Shown: positions 4,497 to 17,898 of the stretch, one piece after another
Position numbering within the stretch: the stretch's first letter is position 1
Layout: each line of letters opens with the position of its first letter
Origin: a virus
Taxonomy: Duplodnaviria > Caudoviricetes
Virus record (IMG/VR): IMGVR_UViG_3300048768_000066
Span: 1 to 50,668 of that record
DNA length: 50,668 nt
Direction: 5' to 3' (one strand)
Position numbers and translations under genes: made by a program
Notes under the pieces: model-generated
Seen by the model: the letters and a program-made list of their open reading frames with translations, nothing else
Databases searched by the model: none
Told to the model about the DNA's origin: nothing

Positions 4497-4531
4497 GATG
4501 TCCCCCTTCTCCCCGTCGTGCCGGGGTGTTG

Positions 4532-4669
4532 TTATGTGTTTTTCTTTTTATGGCTGTCATGCCATGCCGTCATTTGTTTGTCAGTCGTTTCATATTTGAT
4601 CTTCCGTGACCATTTGCCGCAAGTGCAACCGATTGTTTCTTCATCAATGACCGTCATCTCATGTTTCAT
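4532..4669 (-). CDS. Small early protein (45 aa, CxCG motif), not in ORF track
   Basis: MKHEMTVIDEETIGCTCGKW...; starts at the repeated leader/RBS element. Confidence 0.6.
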   Translation of the reverse strand: MKHEMTVIDEETIGCTCGKWSRKIKYETTDKQMTAWHDSHKKKNT

Positions 4670-4730
4670 TTTCCTTCCCTCCTGTTTTATGTCCTGCACC
4701 TTGCAGGCTGTGAGGCCAGCGTGATGTTCT

Positions 4731-4952
4731 TTACTTCCAAATCAGTAAACGATGTTCGGGTGCCGCTCCATGCTCTAACGCAAACCGCCCTTCTTTGGGG
4801 CATACGGATAGATGAACAGCAATCCCGTACCCCGGATGATGTTCTATGCCTGTGGCGTATCTCATGAGACGCTTGGCTCTATCCCTGTTGATGGGTGAGG
4901 CATATCCGTACCCGCTCCAAGACCCCGTCATTGCGATGTAATGCTTTTTCAT
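4731..4952 (-). CDS. Hypothetical early protein (start revised to MKKHY)
   Basis: Start follows the repeated AAAACAGGAGGGAAGGAAA leader. Confidence 0.6.
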   Translation of the reverse strand: MKKHYIAMTGSWSGYGYASPINRDRAKRLMRYATGIEHHPGYGIAVHLSVCPKEGRFALEHGAAPEHRLLIWK

Positions 4953-4969
4953 TTTCCTTCCCTCCTGTT

Positions 4970-5155
4970 TTATTTGATTTCGCCGCCGTACATACAATTT
5001 AACAAAATACTCTGCTCATATCGCCGCCAGACATCAGGAGCATTTTCCTTCATCCAGCCCCTGATTGATGTATTGGATTCCTTTGCGCTCTGGTAGCATT
5101 CCCTCCAATAATCCCGATCCGCTGTTAGGTTTTTTATTGTTGTATCTTTTGTCAT
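4970..5155 (-). CDS. Hypothetical early protein (start revised to MTKDT)
   Basis: Start follows the repeated AAAACAGGAGG leader. Confidence 0.6.
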   Translation of the reverse strand: MTKDTTIKNLTADRDYWRECYQSAKESNTSIRGWMKENAPDVWRRYEQSILLNCMYGGEIK

Positions 5156-5212
5156 GATGTCCTCCTGTTTTATTTCCTGCACCTTGCAGGCTCTAAGATG
5201 TGCCGGTGGCTG

Positions 5213-5404
5213 TTAGGTAAGGGAGTCATTTAAAAATGCTTTTGCTGCGTCTATATCCGCTTGGAATGTTTTGTTTTGCGATAATGCAGCAATCGCTCCC
5301 TTGATTGCAATCACCATCTTATCGTTTTTCTGTTTCAATTCAACAACTTTATAATGATACTCGCTCAGATTTCCCGTGGTCATGCCTTCCATAATATTCT
5401 CCAT
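5213..5404 (-). CDS. Hypothetical early protein, first gene of leftward operon (start uncertain)
   Basis: GGAG RBS candidates before ATG 5404 and 5392. Confidence 0.55.
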   Translation of the reverse strand: MENIMEGMTTGNLSEYHYKVVELKQKNDKMVIAIKGAIAALSQNKTFQADIDAAKAFLNDSLT

Positions 5405-5546
5405 TTCTCCGGCACATTTCACAGCCTGCAAGCTGTATTCCCTGCCATCCGCCCCGCCGTTTCTCCCTGGACTAACCCCAGGTGCCCCCGGTCAAGTGGT
5501 TCTGGATTCTCTTGATTTGGTTGTGAATGAGCTTTGCCTTATATGA

Positions 5547-5562
5547 TGCAACGCCCATGCCA
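5547..5562 (-). promoter_or_regulatory. Sigma54 (-24/-12) promoter for leftward early operon
   Basis: Minus strand TGGCATGGGCGTTGCA fits TGGCAY-N5-TTGCW; intergenic and correctly oriented. Confidence 0.75.
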
Positions 5563-5646
5563 AACCATAGGCCAACATCAGGAAAGCCGCGCCAGTCCTA
5601 CAAAAGAAAATTATCGTAGAACGAAAATAGAACGGATGCCATATCG

Positions 5647-5659
5647 TAAACGCTTGATA
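5647..5659 (-). promoter_or_regulatory. IHF-binding site
   Basis: Minus strand TATCAAGCGTTTA fits WATCAANNNNTTR. Confidence 0.6.
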
Positions 5660-5660
5660 C

Positions 5661-5795
5661 TGGATACAAAGTATCCGAAAACTGTTCAATAAGTATCCAA
5701 AAAGGTGGATACAAAGTATCCGAAAATAGTTTACATAACATCCGCCCATAATTAATTTCTTCAAAACTGGATACTAAGTGGATACTTTTTCCCCA
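5661..5795. promoter_or_regulatory. Array of 17-bp operator/enhancer-like palindromes
   Basis: TGGATACAAAGTATCCG at 5661 and 5706; degenerate copies at 5683, 5728 and 5779; 22-23 bp period. Confidence 0.75.
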
Positions 5796-5797
5796 TA

Positions 5798-5832
5798 ATT
5801 CCCCTTGACATGATACCAAAACGGCGTATGAT
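5798..5832 (+). promoter_or_regulatory. Sigma70-like promoter with ATTCCCC-extended -35
   Basis: TTGACA-16 nt-TATGAT. Confidence 0.6.
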
Positions 5833-5839
5833 ATAGGCC

Positions 5840-6082
5840 ATGGATCTGGAAGGGACAAGACAGGATCTGGTCAGGCTATTTCGTCAAGGGCGATTAGGTA
5901 TTGACGCCGAAGGTCTGCTTGAACTCCTGGACGACATCTATCAGGCCGACAGTGAATACAACTGGCCAACCGACAGGGATCTCATGAGACGGTGCCCATC
6001 ATGCCGGATACGGTATAGGATCACCGAAGCTCACCGCGAGCCTAAACTCTGCCCCTATTGCCACTTTCAAATCTTTTCTTAA
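5840..6082 (+). CDS. Zinc-ribbon protein, possible regulator
   Basis: CPSC...CPYC. Confidence 0.6.
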   Translation: MDLEGTRQDLVRLFRQGRLGIDAEGLLELLDDIYQADSEYNWPTDRDLMRRCPSCRIRYRITEAHREPKLCPYCHFQIFS

Positions 6083-6083
6083 A

Positions 6084-6119
6084 ATTCCCCTTGACAAATC
6101 AAAAAAACCGTGCTAATAT
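6084..6119 (+). promoter_or_regulatory. Sigma70-like promoter for the packaging/structural operon
   Basis: ATTCCCC-TTGACA-17 nt-TAATAT with TGn extended -10. Confidence 0.75.
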
Positions 6120-6234
6120 GTAATCATAAGACAGATGAAAATAGTGTCAATACCCTTTTCGAGTGCGTAAACCTTGTTCTTAATGCTGGCCCCAGCAGTA
6201 GCAAAGCGTTAGCGGAGCGAATAGGACCTCAAGC

Positions 6235-6666
6235 ATGACCCCAGCCCAACAGGCCATCGTCGCACAAAAGACCCTCGAGGGGGTCCCTGGCTGCACTATC
6301 GCGCAATCCCTCGGTGTACATCCTTCCACCGTCACCCGAAACCGTCAATCAGTCCGAGCTTACATAGAACAGGAAATATCCGCCCTCATGCAACGAGGGC
6401 TGAAACCCGCCCGACGTACCCTCTGCCGGCTGGCTGCGATGGGAACCACCAAACAAGCAGACAAAGACACCCTGACCCTCTCTCTCAAAGCCTCCCAGAT
6501 CATCATCGGCCATGCGAACCCCCAGCCAGGAACAGTCGTCTACAACCTAACTCAGATCAACCAACATGAAATGCCGGAAAGTATAAGCAGACTATTCCAG
6601 CAGATCGCACACAACGACACCGGCACCGGCTCTATGCTCCAAGTGGAGGATGCTATTGATGTTTGA
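6235..6666 (+). CDS. Probable terminase small subunit
   Basis: N-terminal HTH (IAQSLGVHPSTVTR), helical core, size, and position at the head of the late operon. Confidence 0.55.
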   Translation: MTPAQQAIVAQKTLEGVPGCTIAQSLGVHPSTVTRNRQSVRAYIEQEISALMQRGLKPARRTLCRLAAMGTTKQADKDTLTLSLKASQIIIGHANPQPGTVVYNLTQINQHEMPESISRLFQQIAHNDTGTGSMLQVEDAIDV

Positions 6667-6736
6667 TCGATCTCAGTTGTTGATAACTTCTCCATCAACC
6701 TATCTCCACCCTGTTCACAACTCCCTCCACCAATCA

Positions 6737-6749
6737 TATCAAGGGGTTA
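6737..6749 (+). promoter_or_regulatory. IHF-binding site
   Basis: TATCAAGGGGTTA fits WATCAANNNNTTR. Confidence 0.6.
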
Positions 6750-6758
6750 GGTGATGAT

Positions 6759-6799
6759 AGTTGACATAATTGGTTGTCATAATGTATGTTATAAGACAT
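6759..6799 (-). other. dif-like XerC/XerD recombination site with duplicated XerD-type arm
   Basis: Minus strand ATGTCTTATAA-CATACA-TTATGACAACC-AA-TTATGTCAACT; 11-6-11 geometry like dif. Confidence 0.6.
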
Positions 6800-6924
6800 T
6801 GGCTGTTGATAGTGGAGCGTGATGGTTGTTTAGTGGCGTGCGGTGGAGGGGAGGGGATGACCGGTTTTAGGGGAGGTAGAGGTGCCACAGATACCAATCC
6901 CGTTCAACACGCAAGGGGTAAAAT

Positions 6925-7272
6925 TTGAGATCTACTGCGCAACAGAGAGAGAATCATAGGCGGCATGACAGGAAATGTCGTCATGAGATTCGTGATTACA
7001 TTGATGCTATCAAGGCAACTGGTTGCGTATTGTGCGGTTATGTGAAGTGTTTGTCAGCGATAGAGTTCCACCATATAAGACGCGATAAAGAGCAGACAAT
7101 ATCGGACATACAGAAGTCTTTAAAAAAGGTAAAGGTTGAAATTGCTAAGTGTATTATTGTCTGTTCCAACTGCCATCGTGAGATTCACGCGGGGAAAATT
7201 GAAGTACACAACCATACCGAGACAGGGGTGGTTGAGGAATTGCCGTTATTGAAACTTATCAGTAATACTTAG
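6925..7272 (+). CDS. HNH endonuclease
   Basis: CVLCG...EFHH...EIAKCIIVCSNCHREIH. Confidence 0.85.
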   Translation: MRSTAQQRENHRRHDRKCRHEIRDYIDAIKATGCVLCGYVKCLSAIEFHHIRRDKEQTISDIQKSLKKVKVEIAKCIIVCSNCHREIHAGKIEVHNHTETGVVEELPLLKLISNT

Positions 7273-7280
7273 GAGTAAAG

Positions 7281-8930
7281 ATGGCCAGGTATAGGTTTCC
7301 GAAGGAACTGAACGGGATCACGAAGGACCAGAATGGGCGTGTACTGGAAGGGGTGACGGTGAGTGTCTTCTTGGCGGGGACGACTACGCCTGCGAAGATA
7401 TATGCAACTGCGGTGAGCACGCCTGCGGTTTACAGTGTTTTGAGTGATGCTTCGGGGTCTTTCGTATTTTATGTAAGTGATGGGGATTACACCTATCCAC
7501 AGGCGTTTGACATTGTTTATTCAAAGTCGAGCGGGGGTGTTGAGTACACGACCACGACGAGCAGCAATGTAGGGATACTGACAGCGCCGTCGGCTTCCGG
7601 GAATATTGTTTACAACAACACCACGGCGATAGCCGGGAACTTCGCGTCTTTTTCCGGGGGCACGGGTAAGTTGATAGAGGATTCGGGGACGGCGTTGGCC
7701 GGGTTTGTGACTCTGACGGCGGTGCAGACGCTTACCAACAAGACCCTGACATCCCCGAAGATTAACGAAGCTGTTGCGCTGACAGCCACCTCGACGCAAC
7801 TTAACGCTTCAGCTGCGGCTACACATGCCGCTGTGACGGTATCGGCCCCGATCGTTGTTACCGGGCAGGCTCTTTCCATTGTCAATAGCGCGGCGGCGAC
7901 GGTAACGGCGGTGGATACTGGGACGCTGGCAAGTTCCGATACGGTGATTCCGACAAGTAAGGCGGTTGTGACGGCGATAGCGGCGGCTTCCGGGGCGGTT
8001 GTCGCGTCGGGCGCGGAACTGGATACCGGCACGGACAATGCCAAATTCGCTTCGGCCAAAGCCTTAAAAGACAGTCACAACGTTCCGAGCGTCGTGCCCG
8101 GAACGGCAAGCAATGTTTTACAAAGCGACGGAACAGACTGGATCAGCGGGGCGGCTCCTGCTGGCGTTGTGGCCACTGGCGCAGAGTTGGACACGGGGAC
8201 AAACAATACTAAGTTTGCCTCTGCGAAGGCGTTGAAGGATTCCCACAACGTGCCTTCGGTTGCGCCTTCCACGGCAGGTAATGTGCTGACTTCTGATGGA
8301 ACCGACTGGACAAGCGGGGTGGCGCCCGGATGGAAACAGACCGTCGGAACGTTCACCGCTACCCCTGCATCGACTTCCACTTTGACCATGACTTCCGATT
8401 TGACGGCGACCATTTTAGCGAATATGCCGCTGAAGTATGTCATCGGCGGCGTGACAAAGTACGGAATGGTTGGAACCATTGTCAGCAACCTTTTGACCGT
8501 CAACGGCGCGGCCCTGAGTGGGGACGTGACGGCCCTGTATTACGGCGGAGGCACTATCAGGCAGGTAGTCATCATCATCCCGTCAACTTACGAGGATGCG
8601 ACCAATACCGCCCTGATTACTTCTGACCTGAAATCGTCTGTGATATGGGCCTTGCCTCTTTCGTATTGCGTTCATTTCAAAATATATTCCGACACGGTGG
8701 ACAGCAGCACGAAAGGCACAGCTTCGGTGAGGATCAACGGGACCGAGCTTTGCACGACGGCAGGAGGGTTGACGCTCACGGCCGCTAAAACATGGTATGC
8801 AACGGTCGTGGACATTGCGACTGCGGCCTATGACATCAACCCGAGCGAAGCGATTGAAATAACGGCGGTGAAGAACGGAGCCGGAGATGCTTCGGATCTC
8901 ACCGTTGAGATGATCTTCGTGACCCCGTAG
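7281..8930 (+). CDS. Fibre-like virion protein with internal ~56-aa tandem duplication
   Basis: N-terminal Ig/head-binding-like domain, QTLTNKTLTSPKIN fibre motif, T/A/G/S-rich, repeat at ~7998-8327. Confidence 0.7.
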   Translation: MARYRFPKELNGITKDQNGRVLEGVTVSVFLAGTTTPAKIYATAVSTPAVYSVLSDASGSFVFYVSDGDYTYPQAFDIVYSKSSGGVEYTTTTSSNVGILTAPSASGNIVYNNTTAIAGNFASFSGGTGKLIEDSGTALAGFVTLTAVQTLTNKTLTSPKINEAVALTATSTQLNASAAATHAAVTVSAPIVVTGQALSIVNSAAATVTAVDTGTLASSDTVIPTSKAVVTAIAAASGAVVASGAELDTGTDNAKFASAKALKDSHNVPSVVPGTASNVLQSDGTDWISGAAPAGVVATGAELDTGTNNTKFASAKALKDSHNVPSVAPSTAGNVLTSDGTDWTSGVAPGWKQTVGTFTATPASTSTLTMTSDLTATILANMPLKYVIGGVTKYGMVGTIVSNLLTVNGAALSGDVTALYYGGGTIRQVVIIIPSTYEDATNTALITSDLKSSVIWALPLSYCVHFKIYSDTVDSSTKGTASVRINGTELCTTAGGLTLTAAKTWYATVVDIATAAYDINPSEAIEITAVKNGAGDASDLTVEMIFVTP

Positions 8931-8939
8931 GAGAAGGGA

Positions 8940-9464
8940 ATGGCGGTATATTCGCATAATCCACTTTGCATAACGGATGTACAAATCTCTGATACCAGTC
9001 CGTGTGTCATTACGTTTTCTGCGGAATACGCTCCAGGCTATGAAGCATATCGTTCTTTCGATCATTTAAATATAATTACAAATTCTTGGTATTCCTATCT
9101 TGCTACGACGGGTTGGATTGAGGTTGATTTGGGAGAGGGAATTACTAAGAGTATTACTTCATACACCGTGTCTTTCCCTTATGATTATGTTGACTTCCTT
9201 GATGGACCTAACGCTTGGACTATTAGAGGAAGCGCTAACGGGACTTCTTGGACAACGGTTGATACTCAAACCGGACAATCCTGGTCCGGCGCGAATGAGA
9301 TGAAAACTTTCACACTCGGTTATACCACGTCTGCTTATCGGTATTGGTTGATGGACATAACGTCGAATTGCGGCGGCAATTCTCTGATGATGGGAGAATT
9401 GGAATTGATAGGACCGGCGGTCGGACCAGTGAGTTACAACAGAAATAACATCATGATCTTTTAA
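8940..9464 (+). CDS. Discoidin (F5/8 type C)-like carbohydrate-binding protein
   Basis: WIEVDLG...PNAWTIRGSANGTSWTTVD...YRYW...ELELIG. Confidence 0.8.
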   Translation: MAVYSHNPLCITDVQISDTSPCVITFSAEYAPGYEAYRSFDHLNIITNSWYSYLATTGWIEVDLGEGITKSITSYTVSFPYDYVDFLDGPNAWTIRGSANGTSWTTVDTQTGQSWSGANEMKTFTLGYTTSAYRYWLMDITSNCGGNSLMMGELELIGPAVGPVSYNRNNIMIF

Positions 9465-9481
9465 TAAAGGGAATTTTCATT

Positions 9482-10144
9482 GTGGATTCAGAAGCTATAA
9501 AAGCAAAATTAGATACCATATCGTCATTAATTGCAGACCTTTATGTTCTGACAGCAGTGACTCCTCCTTCTACTTCGTCTCCTGCCGATCCACCTATCAC
9601 GGCTCCGCCTATCACGGCTCCACCCATCGCGGCGTCGCCTGTTAACGGCAGTACTATTGTTAAGATTGAGGATTCGGATTATATTGAGTTTCATGGACTT
9701 AATCAGTATCTTGCAAAGGAATATCTCGACCAGTTGACTATTTTGATGCAACAAAATATCATACAGTTTCCTGATCGGCAATTCAAAAAACTGTATATCC
9801 TCGATGCGGGTACTTCTGATGGAAGCGATCCGCCGAACCATCCCATAGGAACTCATTGCAAGGGATGGGCTGTTGATGCAAAGTATTTCTCTCTTGATGG
9901 AAGTTTCAAAATCTTTGGATCTGATGGAACGATAACAGAGAATTTTGACATTAAGCGAGCGCTGAATTTCATCCTTGCGTTTATAAAAGTGTTTCCTTTA
10001 TGTTATATCTTTATGGATGATCGGATATACTTGGCCTTGTGGAATCTTGCTGCATGGAGTGACAAACAGATTCTTCAAGATAATGTATTTAAGGGATTGG
10101 GACATGATACTCATATTCATCTTGGATATCATGGGCCAAGATGA
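9482..10144 (+). CDS. LAS-type zinc metallopeptidase (M15/MepA-like) with Pro-rich linker
   Basis: H-x6-D (HCKGWAVD) and HxH (HDTHIH); PPITA repeats. Confidence 0.6.
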   Translation: MDSEAIKAKLDTISSLIADLYVLTAVTPPSTSSPADPPITAPPITAPPIAASPVNGSTIVKIEDSDYIEFHGLNQYLAKEYLDQLTILMQQNIIQFPDRQFKKLYILDAGTSDGSDPPNHPIGTHCKGWAVDAKYFSLDGSFKIFGSDGTITENFDIKRALNFILAFIKVFPLCYIFMDDRIYLALWNLAAWSDKQILQDNVFKGLGHDTHIHLGYHGPR

Positions 10145-10370: not shown

Positions 10371-10553
10371 ATGTCTGCTCCTTGGGAAGAGAATTTTGAT
10401 AAGTACGTTCATCCCGTAAAAGATGACGGGACCCTGGGAGTTCGTCCTTTGAAAATAGGTTTTGAGAGAATAAAACAGGGTACGTCCAGGATGCGGCGGT
10501 TTTTGCGGATGGTAGATGGATTGAAAAACCCGGCAAGGCGGCAGGATGGTTGA
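10371..10553 (+). CDS. Hypothetical protein
   Basis: GGAGG RBS; overlaps the terL start. Confidence 0.5.
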   Translation: MSAPWEENFDKYVHPVKDDGTLGVRPLKIGFERIKQGTSRMRRFLRMVDGLKNPARRQDG

Positions 10554-12207
10554 GCAGGACCTGAGCGACATTGATCTGACCCCGTACATTGGCCTTGCTG
10601 ACTTCATTCCGACGGATGTTTTTAAGACTATTCTGGAGATTCGGAATAAGGTTCTTTTGTTTGTCACCGGCAACCGATTCGGGAAAACTAAGGCTCTGGT
10701 GCGGGCGAAGGCAATATATCCTATTTTAGGCCAGTGTCCGATTTCGGAACACAACATTAAACCGGAGGACAAGTGCCGGGTGATTAGATTTGCGGCGGAG
10801 CTACTTCCAGAGGACAAGGAGAACGAGGTAAGGAACACGGTATATCCGCAACTGAAGTACCAGCTTCCGAGTACATTGATACGGAAAGACATAACTGCAC
10901 GGGTTCCGACGATTTCTGTTCAACCTGTCTTGGGGGGCAAACCGGCGACGATTGAGTTTGTTTCGTATGGGCAGAGTACGCAGGCTGGCGCCGGGGTGGA
11001 TCGACGAACGATCATAGTTGATGAGGTATGTCCCTACGAGTTTTATGAAGAATCCCTGCCTCGTCTGGCCACGACAAACGGGCAATTCTGCGCGGGCCTG
11101 ACCCCCGTGGAGGCTGGATGGATGTTTACGGAGCTCTACGAAAGAGCCAGGATGTATATTAGGACGCCTTGCGTGAGGGCCTTCCTGAAGAAACAATATG
11201 GGCAGGTAGTAAAGCAGGTCGAGAAAACGGACTCCAGGCAGGATATTTGCGTATTGCAGGCCGCTTCGGACGATAACCCGATATTTGCTTTGATGATAAA
11301 GCGGAAGATGCAGGAGATCAATGATGGGAAGATTAAGAGGGAAGATTTCCCTTACGAGTCTGTATCTGATTACCTCGACTCTGTTTTTATGTACGATGAT
11401 CCTGACACTGTTGCGATGCGTCGTTATGGGGTGTTTAGACAAATTACTGGAGCTGTTCACAAAGAGTTTCAATGGTCTGTGCATGTCATACCAGAAAAAA
11501 AGTACTTCGCAGAAGGACTACCGGCGAGTTGGAGATTTGCTCGGATGATCGACTACCACCAGTCCGTCCCGTGGGCTATTGTCTGGATTGCTCTTTCGCC
11601 GGACGATGAGGCTTTTGTCTGGCAGGAGATGAACCCTGATCCACATACCTGGACGACTTTGGGAATCTGCAAAGAGATGTTTGAGAGAAGTCTTGAGTAT
11701 TCTTACCGGATAAATCTCATAGATAAATTAGCGACTGAGAAGCAGACGATTACGAACACCAGCACCGTAGAGGATATGAACCGCATGTTCCGGGAGGCTG
11801 GCCACTTGGGGTACGATAAGGCGACCGCTTGGGAATCCTGGGATGACAAGACGACTAAGGGTGAGGACAAGGTGCGAGAACGGTTGATAAATTCCAAAAT
11901 ATGCGGTAAGCCGTTCAACAACCTCCAGATGTCTGCGGGGAAGAAACAGAGACTTCCAACACTGTGGATCTTTGACAACTGCCAGGAGACGGCGAGGAGC
12001 CTCAAAAACTGGAAAATGGAGGAGTGGCTTGACCGGGATGCAATCATAACCAAAGAGAAGAAAGACAAAAGGGAAAGTAAATACTCCCATTTTAATAGGT
12101 GCTTAGAAGCCATTTTTAAGGATTCTCGATTCAAGGTGCCGAATGCCTATATGTCGGCAAGAGAGGAATTTCACGCGCCGAGGTTCTATCAAGGGAGAGC
12201 AGGGTAA
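10546..12207 (+). CDS. terL: Terminase large subunit
   Basis: Walker A GNRFGKT, Walker B IIVDE, LTP coupling motif, RNase H-like MIDYH. Confidence 0.9.
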   Translation: MVEQDLSDIDLTPYIGLADFIPTDVFKTILEIRNKVLLFVTGNRFGKTKALVRAKAIYPILGQCPISEHNIKPEDKCRVIRFAAELLPEDKENEVRNTVYPQLKYQLPSTLIRKDITARVPTISVQPVLGGKPATIEFVSYGQSTQAGAGVDRRTIIVDEVCPYEFYEESLPRLATTNGQFCAGLTPVEAGWMFTELYERARMYIRTPCVRAFLKKQYGQVVKQVEKTDSRQDICVLQAASDDNPIFALMIKRKMQEINDGKIKREDFPYESVSDYLDSVFMYDDPDTVAMRRYGVFRQITGAVHKEFQWSVHVIPEKKYFAEGLPASWRFARMIDYHQSVPWAIVWIALSPDDEAFVWQEMNPDPHTWTTLGICKEMFERSLEYSYRINLIDKLATEKQTITNTSTVEDMNRMFREAGHLGYDKATAWESWDDKTTKGEDKVRERLINSKICGKPFNNLQMSAGKKQRLPTLWIFDNCQETARSLKNWKMEEWLDRDAIITKEKKDKRESKYSHFNRCLEAIFKDSRFKVPNAYMSAREEFHAPRFYQGRAG

Positions 12208-16956: not shown

Positions 16957-17898
16957 ATGAGTAATCCTATGAATCAGTCAAGATTTCAGGAGTTAGTACG
17001 GAAGGGGTGGGATAAAGTTACCGGCGAGGTCACAGAGGAACTGCATCAGCGCGAGTCGCTGCGGGAAACCCTCTATACCGAAGCGGGACTGGATTCCGCA
17101 TATTACGAGAAATACGGCGTCAGCGATCTACCGGATATCCCGCGTTTCAATGGGACCTTAACATATCTGGATGTGGCTCCAGGATTTGGGGTCAGAATCG
17201 AACCTGGCGAGTTTGCCGCTGGCGTAGAAGTGGAAAGGAAACTCTGGGAGAACAATCTTTATCCGGTCATGAAAGACTGGCCAAGAAAGTTTACTATGGC
17301 TTCACATCGCACCAAGGAGAAAGCGGCAATCAAAGGGTATGCAAAGCTCAATTCAGCAGCCTTTGATTTCATGCCGTGGAATGAGGAAGGCGTACCCATT
17401 GCCAGTTCCAGCCATACGACGAAGAATGATTATGTCACGACTTCGGCGGGTGGTTATAGCAACTTGGGCAGTTCGGCTTTCAGCCCGACGGCGGTTGAAG
17501 CTACCAGAATCCTGATGAGGGGATTCCGGGGTCTGAATGGTGAAATTCTTGCCATTACCCCGGACGGCTTCATCGGTCCTACGACTCTCGATCAGAAGTT
17601 CGAGGAAGTGACGGCAACGCCGTTAGGACTTTACACGGCGAACCATACCGTCAACGTACAGCACAACCGCAAGTGGGAGTATAAAACCTCCCAGTATTTC
17701 AATGATTACAGCACGAAAAGCTGGATCATGGTTGATTGGAACCTTCTGAAGCAATTAGCGGTATGGAAAACGAGGATAGAAGACCAGGGTGGGGCAAAGA
17801 TCGACTTTGAGACCTACCGTCTGAAGTTCTCCCTGTACAGCTATTGGGGTTACGGCTTCCTTGGATGGCAAGCGTTTTACTTCCATCAGGTGAGCTAA
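16957..17898 (+). CDS. Major capsid protein (HK97 fold, Mu gpT-like)
   Basis: 313 aa, AAGGAGGT RBS, EGVPIASSSH and DFET...YWGYGFLGWQ C-terminal pattern. Confidence 0.75.
   Translation: MSNPMNQSRFQELVRKGWDKVTGEVTEELHQRESLRETLYTEAGLDSAYYEKYGVSDLPDIPRFNGTLTYLDVAPGFGVRIEPGEFAAGVEVERKLWENNLYPVMKDWPRKFTMASHRTKEKAAIKGYAKLNSAAFDFMPWNEEGVPIASSSHTTKNDYVTTSAGGYSNLGSSAFSPTAVEATRILMRGFRGLNGEILAITPDGFIGPTTLDQKFEEVTATPLGLYTANHTVNVQHNRKWEYKTSQYFNDYSTKSWIMVDWNLLKQLAVWKTRIEDQGGAKIDFETYRLKFSLYSYWGYGFLGWQAFYFHQVS

Follow-up and report, generated by a model that had tools for sequence, protein, structure and literature searches.

Known Xer sites and the locus under study

Chromosomal dif sites, the targets of XerC and XerD (XerCD), recombinases of the host, consist of two 11-bp arms ending in ATAA/TTAT and a 6-bp centre and occur in one copy per replicon, as described in the consulted part of PMC3025954. 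We analyzed a site of this kind in the genome of a tailed double-stranded DNA phage, IMG/VR record IMGVR_UViG_3300048768_000066, a complete virus record of 50,668 bp represented by a circular assembly; the window is this whole record. The site is a 28-mer at positions 6772-6799. A sequence-only reading had described it as a dif-like XerCD site lying in non-coding DNA together with an additional arm (6759-6769) and a match to the integration host factor (IHF) consensus (6737-6749), and all of these elements are present. Unlike chromosomal dif, the site is part of a 50.7-kb phage genome and is not found at a chromosomal terminus, its centre is variable across the class of sites to which it belongs, it is accompanied by an extra arm, and its core XerD-type arm agrees with dif at 8 of 11 positions. 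Judging from the sequence comparisons reported below, the chances are about even that this 28-mer is a genuine XerCD core for recombination between phage copies (end joining, circularization or multimer resolution) beside the packaging start.

The viruses known so far to exploit Xer recombination are small filamentous phages and also microviruses, which insert themselves at dif. The consulted parts of three reports (PMC4246890, PMC6744903, PMC7062461) describe the filamentous phages CTXphi, VGJphi and TLCphi, which carry the attP of integrative mobile elements exploiting Xer (IMEX), and gokushoviruses with dif-like motifs; plasmid prophages that possess Xer-like enzymes of their own are also known from part of PMC8026635. 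As in the IMEX phages of these accounts, the phage studied here combines the lack of its own integrase with a dif-like site for host XerCD. However, the IMEX phages are described there as small, with single-stranded DNA, and found integrated at dif, whereas here the phage is tailed and has double-stranded DNA, no integrated form was found, and the site is tied to the packaging or terminal-repeat region. Our literature search turned up no account of tailed phages with host-type dif sites at their genome ends; subscription journals and supplements were mostly outside this search, and a prior description is possible.

Two other systems resemble this locus in different respects. The plasmid sites cer and psi combine a Xer core with a free centre and act between copies on the same replicon. 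They are defined by about 200 bp of PepA/ArgR/ArcA accessory sequences, none of which is evident here, where no search was aimed at them, and the replicon in the present case is a virus. In phage P1, the loxP site of the Cre-loxP system is located near the packaging start and can be present in both ends of the terminally redundant DNA, and recombination between the two copies can close the circle. P1 encodes its own recombinase, whereas here the enzyme would be that of the host.

A dif-like core in a genome without a recognizable integrase

The 28-mer is composed of two inverted 11-bp arms with inner ATAA/TTAT ends and a 6-bp centre, which is the layout of a dif-type core. The dif seeds used for comparison were those of E. 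coli, B. subtilis and F. alni, taken from the consulted part of Kono et al. 2011 (PMC3025954). In the plus-strand alignment of the sequence-only reading, the site agrees with E. coli dif at 20 of 28 positions (8+5+7, counted by eye). On the minus strand, the agreement is 15/28 with E. coli dif and 19/28 with B. subtilis dif, and this second orientation is the one favored by family evidence. The core XerD-type arm shares 8/11 positions with the B. subtilis and F. alni seeds and 7/11 with the E. coli seed, and the extra arm shares 10/11 positions, by eye, with the XerD arms of B. subtilis and F. alni.

A family pattern, GTTNACATAWNNNNNNTTATNRGACRT, was derived from the site and its relatives and scanned with up to 3 mismatches. 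It matches the phage genome once (6773-6799, 1 mismatch), with 0.07 matches expected and 7 of 100 shuffles giving a match; the XerC-type core arm agrees with the right arm of the pattern, TTATNRGACRT. With a weight matrix built from the arms only, the site scores 25.0 bits, compared with 6.7 bits for the next best position in the genome and a maximum of 10.6 bits in 30 shuffles. The match to the dif-type motif is not a matter of chance.

The earlier statement that the phage lacks an integrase also held: a six-frame search of the genome gave no match to the tyrosine recombinase family PF00589 at E<=1, and the serine recombinase family PF00239 had no match in the genome. PF00589 was found in none of the 11 site-bearing virus records searched, this phage included. 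FtsK/SpoIIIE is the natural activator of XerCD at dif, and a homologue is encoded in one (G087, 64483-64824) of the five complete site-bearing records tested.

Distribution of the site in viral and metagenome contigs

The family pattern was found in at least 119 viral contigs, compared with 6 for the reversed control pattern, and the flanks of these viral sites are unrelated to each other. The 105 distinct viral sites have 74 distinct centres, and 101 of the 119 listed sites lie outside any open reading frame (ORF) of 100 aa or more. Nine of the 10 other virus records searched possess a single site. The tenth, the 61.9-kb viral contig G003, has two (loci L085 and L150, at 21290 and 57429), which are 36,139 nt apart; this contig consists of two collinear tandem units that are 74-86% identical and could represent tandem related phages, a cointegrate or an assembly chimera.

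The neighborhood of the viral sites was characterized using 102 ORFs of 270-575 aa, taken from the 3.5 kb around each of 100 distinct sites. Most often these ORFs belong to Terminase_6N (12), a DEAD-like terminase of a marine lineage (10-11), Terminase_6C (9), Terminase_3 (5) and portal families (8), and integrase is absent from the 25 neighbor families shown. In the marine lineage, the gene order is primase-helicase, SSB, exonuclease, site, Sf6-type small terminase and large terminase. In 11 of 47 whole viral contigs, a contig end is no more than 300 nt from the site, whereas 3.7 such contigs were expected (p=0.0007); the corresponding number for metagenome contigs, 18 of 63 with 14.9 expected, is not significant.

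The pattern is also present in at least 120 metagenome contigs, where one identical 27-mer recurs with unrelated flanks. All 10 neighboring ORFs tested, from 7 metagenome contigs, are cellular genes, among them those for class I and alanyl tRNA synthetases, exonuclease VII (XseA), CCA/poly(A) polymerase and acetyl-CoA synthetase, as well as LptF/G, AsmA-like, dehydrogenase and MmeI proteins. The commonest metagenome form, read on the minus strand, matches the B. subtilis XerD arm at 11/11 and the XerC arm at 7/11 positions. Neither the enrichment over the control nor the chromosomal contexts are built into the pattern. The view that the site behaves as a true dif-type core is supported by the conserved arms and free centre, the excess of viral contigs over the control, the contigs with housekeeping genes and the host-matched arms of the cultured phages described below.

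Extra XerD-type arms occur within 45 nt of 10 of the 105 viral sites, but in only 1 of 521 control windows; among metagenome sites, 3 of 120 have one. This recurrence weakens the earlier suggestion that the duplicated arm is a recombination scar, since an accessory role becomes equally likely. Two whole contigs with different record names, L094 and L115, share their first nucleotide, which is 104 nt upstream of the site, and in both of them an extra XerD-type arm, in inverted orientation, precedes the core by 25 nt (positions 1-131). The IHF match at 6737 was identified with WATCAANNNNTTR, which we take to be the IHF consensus. It is a real match but only mildly unusual in this genome, which contains 5 matches on both strands (shuffle mean 1.9; 8 of 200 shuffles reach 5 or more). 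None of the four relatives inspected for it (L005, L010, L015 and L035) has the motif next to its site. Overall, the motif is enriched near viral sites, at 24 of 105 compared with 10 of 515 control windows, counts that ignore kinship.

Cultured phages with host-matched arms

A BLAST search of cultured phages with one of the sites matched Bacillus phage Blastoid (L332) at two places in its record. The Blastoid site reads ACTTCCGAGAA TATATA TTATGTAAACT on the minus strand and agrees with B. subtilis dif at 27 of 28 positions. It is located at 738-765, inside the annotated 830-bp terminal repeat, where it directly follows gene 1 and precedes a C/G-rich stretch at the inner edge of the repeat. According to the Blastoid genome paper, the 830-bp repeat was found from raw reads and the phage has an FtsK/SpoIIIE homologue of unknown role; dif is not mentioned. 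The Blastoid region is shared by 21 Bacillus phage records, mostly at two places each, and gene 1 is annotated as a small terminase in two of them.

The arms of the Blastoid, Andromeda and PS1 sites match B. subtilis dif at 21 of 22 positions and enclose three different centres. In rV5, a phage of E. coli, the two arms are identical to those of E. coli dif (22/22) and the centre agrees at 3 of 6 positions; its site is located in a 2.6-kb gene-free gap. As judged from these alignments, the arms in these cultured phages follow the dif of the host and the centre varies. Blastoid and the phage studied here share the order of a small-terminase-like gene, the site and a G/C-rich block. On the other hand, the Andromedavirus and rV5 arms match the dif of a known host at 21-22 of 22 positions, whereas here the core arm is weaker.

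Conservation among relatives and a G-rich block

Searches of viral contigs with single proteins found no relatives of the large terminase (terL) product or of the 143-aa protein (p143) encoded upstream of the site, and two weak partial matches to a 549-aa tail-spike-like ORF. Relatives were gathered through an alignment of terL homologues, which resulted in 80 viral loci. Conservation in relatives had been proposed earlier as a check, and it was found in four loci, L010, L015, L035 and L005, where both arms are retained around a centre of 6 or 7 bp although terL identity is only about 40-70%. Looser copies were recognized by eye in L048/L052 and L038, and L008 has, also by eye, the site in the opposite orientation. 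No site was found in the first 5 kb of phiM5, a terL relative from the marine lineage.

A conserved G-rich block follows the site at a distance of 18-130 nt. It begins with a G run containing CCGG, followed by ATCCC, ACACACGGAGG and TAAAA, and was detected by nhmmer (E<=1) in this phage and in 13 loci, among them L004 (~1070-1170), L005 (~90-180), L010 (~8610-8700), L015 (~1915-2010) and L035 (~8830-8920). In 9 other loci, a p143 homologue is encoded no more than about 1.5 kb from the block, on its upstream side or in the interval that separates it from terL. In Blastoid and phiM5, a C/G-rich run is located at the inner edge of the annotated terminal repeats, and thus the G-rich block may mark a genome-end boundary. 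We regard it as a candidate element that probably marks a genome end or the boundary of a terminal repeat. In the contig of L047, the first ~60 nt are poly-G and lead into the block (1-62), which could be a sequencing or assembly artefact or a hint of a physical end.

This setting is also consistent with another explanation, according to which the phage small terminase, the HNH endonuclease or the terminase complex reads the motif as a packaging or end-processing signal and Xer has no role. In this phage family the site is always near a terS-like gene and the G-rich block, in other lineages it is near terminase genes, in Blastoid it is within the terminal repeat, and it is enriched near contig ends. 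However, the same arms are found beside unrelated types of small terminase (Sf6-type, the p143 family and Blastoid gp1) and on metagenome contigs by housekeeping genes, they track the dif of the host and not the phage lineage, and the presence of the site is, by eye, independent of the subgroups of the p143 family. We consider it unlikely that the site is a packaging signal only.

Integration at the host dif site

In an IMEX-like lysogeny, the site would be an attP at which host XerCD integrates the circular phage genome into chromosomal dif. The lack of a phage recombinase suits this explanation, as do a provirus-class record without PF00589 in which the site lies 1.4 kb from one end (G005), the 61.9-kb contig with one site in each of its two diverged tandem units, and the microvirus records among the BLAST matches of the site query. 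The joints between site and chromosome that the sequence-only reading had envisaged did not appear: in the contigs of 3 DNA runs, there is neither a joint nor a loose end at the site. Moreover, only one distant contig of a metagenome-assembled genome with a terL relative was found among 185,579 species genomes, and the left 6 kb of G005 contains no second site under a relaxed pattern (up to 2 mismatches). No Pfam family was found in 10 small ORFs of the phage (9 of them in the early region), so no repressor or other lysogeny gene was recognized among them. Finally, phages that share a host have different centres, which also deviate from the centre of the host type, and differing centres disfavor exchange with dif. 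The phage thus shares with IMEX the lack of its own recombinase, whereas integration at chromosomal dif was not seen in the contigs or species genomes. An IMEX-like lysogeny has a low probability in our estimation, and integration at the host dif is less likely than recombination between phage copies.

Proposed recombination between phage copies

The recurrence of the site in many unrelated phages suggests that host XerCD is borrowed to join or resolve phage genomes. In the phage studied here, host XerD would act on the left arm and host XerC on the right arm, and the extra left arm may be a further target of XerD. The recombination partners would be two copies of the phage's own site. Copies located in the two terminal repeats of one injected genome would give a circle, and if the copies were on sister or concatemer units, head-to-tail joining or multimer resolution would follow. 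The centre would be free to drift because both partners are copies of one phage site and the centre always matches itself, and the arms would be constrained because their fit to the host enzymes must persist. Recombination of phage copies by host XerCD would therefore account for the free centre, the host-matched arms, the lack of a phage recombinase and the location at the packaging start. Xer binding, the reaction, its purpose and the placement of the site in a terminal repeat are what we infer for this phage. Of the functions proposed earlier, the resolution or joining of genomes near the packaging start fits the packaging genes and the Andromedavirus terminal repeat, and integration is less supported.

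Several observations weigh against this proposal. Among the viral matches of the pattern, whose counts are lower bounds as in metagenome contigs, lineages are separated by their flanks only. The enrichment near contig ends could be explained by assembly breaks at the neighboring G/C runs. In Elusimicrobiota, the pattern occurs in 7 of 81 genomes, compared with 3 of 81 for the control, and is not their usual dif. The likeness of the pattern matches to dif is partly built in, as the pattern was derived from dif-like sites. With regard to the copy in this phage, the single pattern mismatch falls in the core XerD-type arm at an otherwise invariant position (26 of 27 positions are kept), and the score of 25.0 bits is the lowest of all sites compared, the training sites of the weight matrix scoring at least 31.3 bits; given this variant arm and a score below every training site, the site could be decayed. 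In the two closest relatives, L004 and L007, the site is missing and its position is occupied by other direct repeats. The phage genome contains no FtsK-like gene, and nothing in this assembly places the site in a terminal repeat, all 22 sequencing runs listed being represented by contigs. The weak XerD-type arm, the lack of an FtsK-like gene and the site-less nearest relatives weaken the case for this particular copy.

The same observations bear on the explanation that the site is a relic, which the family once used and which is non-functional in this phage through the variant arm and the duplication. The mismatch at the invariant position, the lowest matrix score and the absence of the site from the nearest relatives are in line with decay. 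They are opposed by the retention of all pattern positions except one, by the intact canonical XerD-type arm only 2 bp away and by the recurrence of extra arms at phage sites, and we find a decayed relic quite improbable.

Genomic setting of the site

The 28-mer, the extra arm and the IHF match all lie within a 258-bp ORF-free gap (6667-6924), which is bounded by the ORF of p143 and that of the HNH endonuclease (Table 1). The genes downstream of the gap are on the same strand and include the tail-spike-like ORF, an ORF with a galactose-binding domain, terL, a weak capsid match (16957-17898) and an endolysin. The ends of the record overlap by 127 nt; judged from its length, this looks like an assembler overlap, so the circular assembly is uninformative on the real genome ends.

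Table 1. Coordinates of the dif-like site and of the features around it
Feature	Position	Strand	Sequence or evidence
143-aa protein (p143)	6235-6666	+	N-terminal helix-turn-helix (HTH), helical middle, acidic C-terminus
IHF consensus match	6737-6749	+	TATCAAGGGGTTA
Extra XerD-type arm	6759-6769	-	AGTTGACATAA on the plus strand, TTATGTCAACT on the minus strand; 2 bp from the core
Sigma-70-like match	6761-6790	+	TTGACA, 18 nt, TATGTT; 10/12 positions; overlaps the extra arm and the core
dif-like 28-mer	6772-6799	+	GGTTGTCATAA TGTATG TTATAAGACAT; sequence
Core arm, XerD type, weak variant	6772-6782	-	TTATGACAACC on the minus strand
6-bp centre	6783-6788	not assigned	TGTATG as plus strand
Core arm, XerC type	6789-6799	-	ATGTCTTATAA on the minus strand
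Conserved G-rich block	6838-6924	+	GGTGGAGGGGAGGGGATGACCGG ... AATCCC ... AACACGCAAGGGGTAAAAT; nhmmer
HNH endonuclease gene	6925-7272	+	phrog_2255, E=3.3e-22; directly downstream of the G-rich block
Large terminase subunit (terL)	10546-12207	+	144 relatives, some named terminase by their source or with PF03237

The gap DNA itself has an unremarkable fold (z = +1.31; 182 of 200 shuffles fold equally well or better). The whole genome has no Rfam match at the gathering score, and 6600-7000 has only chance-level matches (E 6-10). BLAST searches of 6200-7300 against cultured phages, with settings for near and distant similarity, gave a short HNH match only. No tRNA genes, which were tried as a clue to the host, were found in the genome.

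The site had been placed after terS in the earlier description. Its location in a non-coding gap is confirmed; the terS label is based on position and architecture, as no family match passed the cut-off. These two features make p143 a candidate for the small terminase subunit or for a DNA-binding factor. Pfam searches with p143 and nine family members gave sub-threshold HTH matches only, the PHROG search gave no match for p143, and a PDB profile search returned only generic HTH matches. The AF2 model of the protein is all-helical and of low confidence (pLDDT 61.7), and Foldseek found no match to it at E<=0.001. The hhalign comparison of the p143 family with Blastoid gp1 gave a probability of 0.1%.

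The sigma-70-like match that overlaps the extra arm and the core raises the further explanation that the region is a late-operon promoter or operator, in which TTGACA (6761) and TATGTT would direct transcription of the HNH, tail-spike and terminase genes, with the repeated arms as half-sites of an operator. The match extends to 10 of 12 positions, and the site heads a long block of same-strand ORFs including structural genes. In addition, the only two contigs of an RNA library on 4500-9500 (151 nt each, depth 2) cover 6583-6867, although the library possibly contains DNA and the depth is just 2. The -35 hexamer, however, lies in the extra arm, which is missing from the relatives, and no promoter match of like strength was found at the sites of L005, L010, L015, L035 and L052, so the sigma-70 match is not conserved. 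A promoter or operator is in our view very unlikely to explain the motif. The two RNA contigs span the end of the p143 ORF and the gap up to the G run and represent either a transcript or carried-over DNA. Two near-consensus sigma-70 matches (TTGACA, 16 nt, TATGAT; 11/12), at 5805-5832 on the plus strand and 6150-6123 on the minus strand, sit near the switch from minus-strand small ORFs to the long plus-strand block.

Other observations concern the neighboring genes. The N-terminal ~100 residues of the tail-spike-like protein (7281-8930) recur upstream of terL in L008-L011, L017, L040 and other loci, with the remainder replaced. This pattern resembles that of an exchangeable module for receptor binding, placed between the site and terL. 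Several terL homologues (P0037, P0038, P0044, P0047, P0082, P0087 and P0096) are 720-890 aa long and contain intein or LAGLIDADG families (PF14890, PF14528). A segment of 39 nt at 5015-5053 is shared, with 3 differences, by a second, 11.5-kb contig of run X1; the three DNA runs all show the same loose ends here, as might be expected of a short element that another genome also possesses.

Implications

Beyond this phage, we tentatively propose, at somewhat less than even probability, that tailed phages of many unrelated groups, in peat, marine, soil and gut environments, each keep one host-matched dif core by their packaging genes or in their terminal repeats. With host XerCD, and in some cases a phage FtsK, the core would serve as a general integrase-free means of genome closing, concatenation and resolution, and the phage studied here would be a member with an accessory second XerD arm. 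Cultured systems for a direct test exist in Bacillus pumilus with its Andromedaviruses and in E. coli with rV5-like phages.

If the proposal is true, it would provide a testable mechanism for a so far unexplained step of the phage cycle, in which phages that lack a recombinase close or join their linear genomes with terminal repeats. It would also provide a role for the phage FtsK/SpoIIIE protein, which is called unknown in the Blastoid paper. Finally, the arms of the site would serve as a sequence-only clue to the hosts of uncultured phages.

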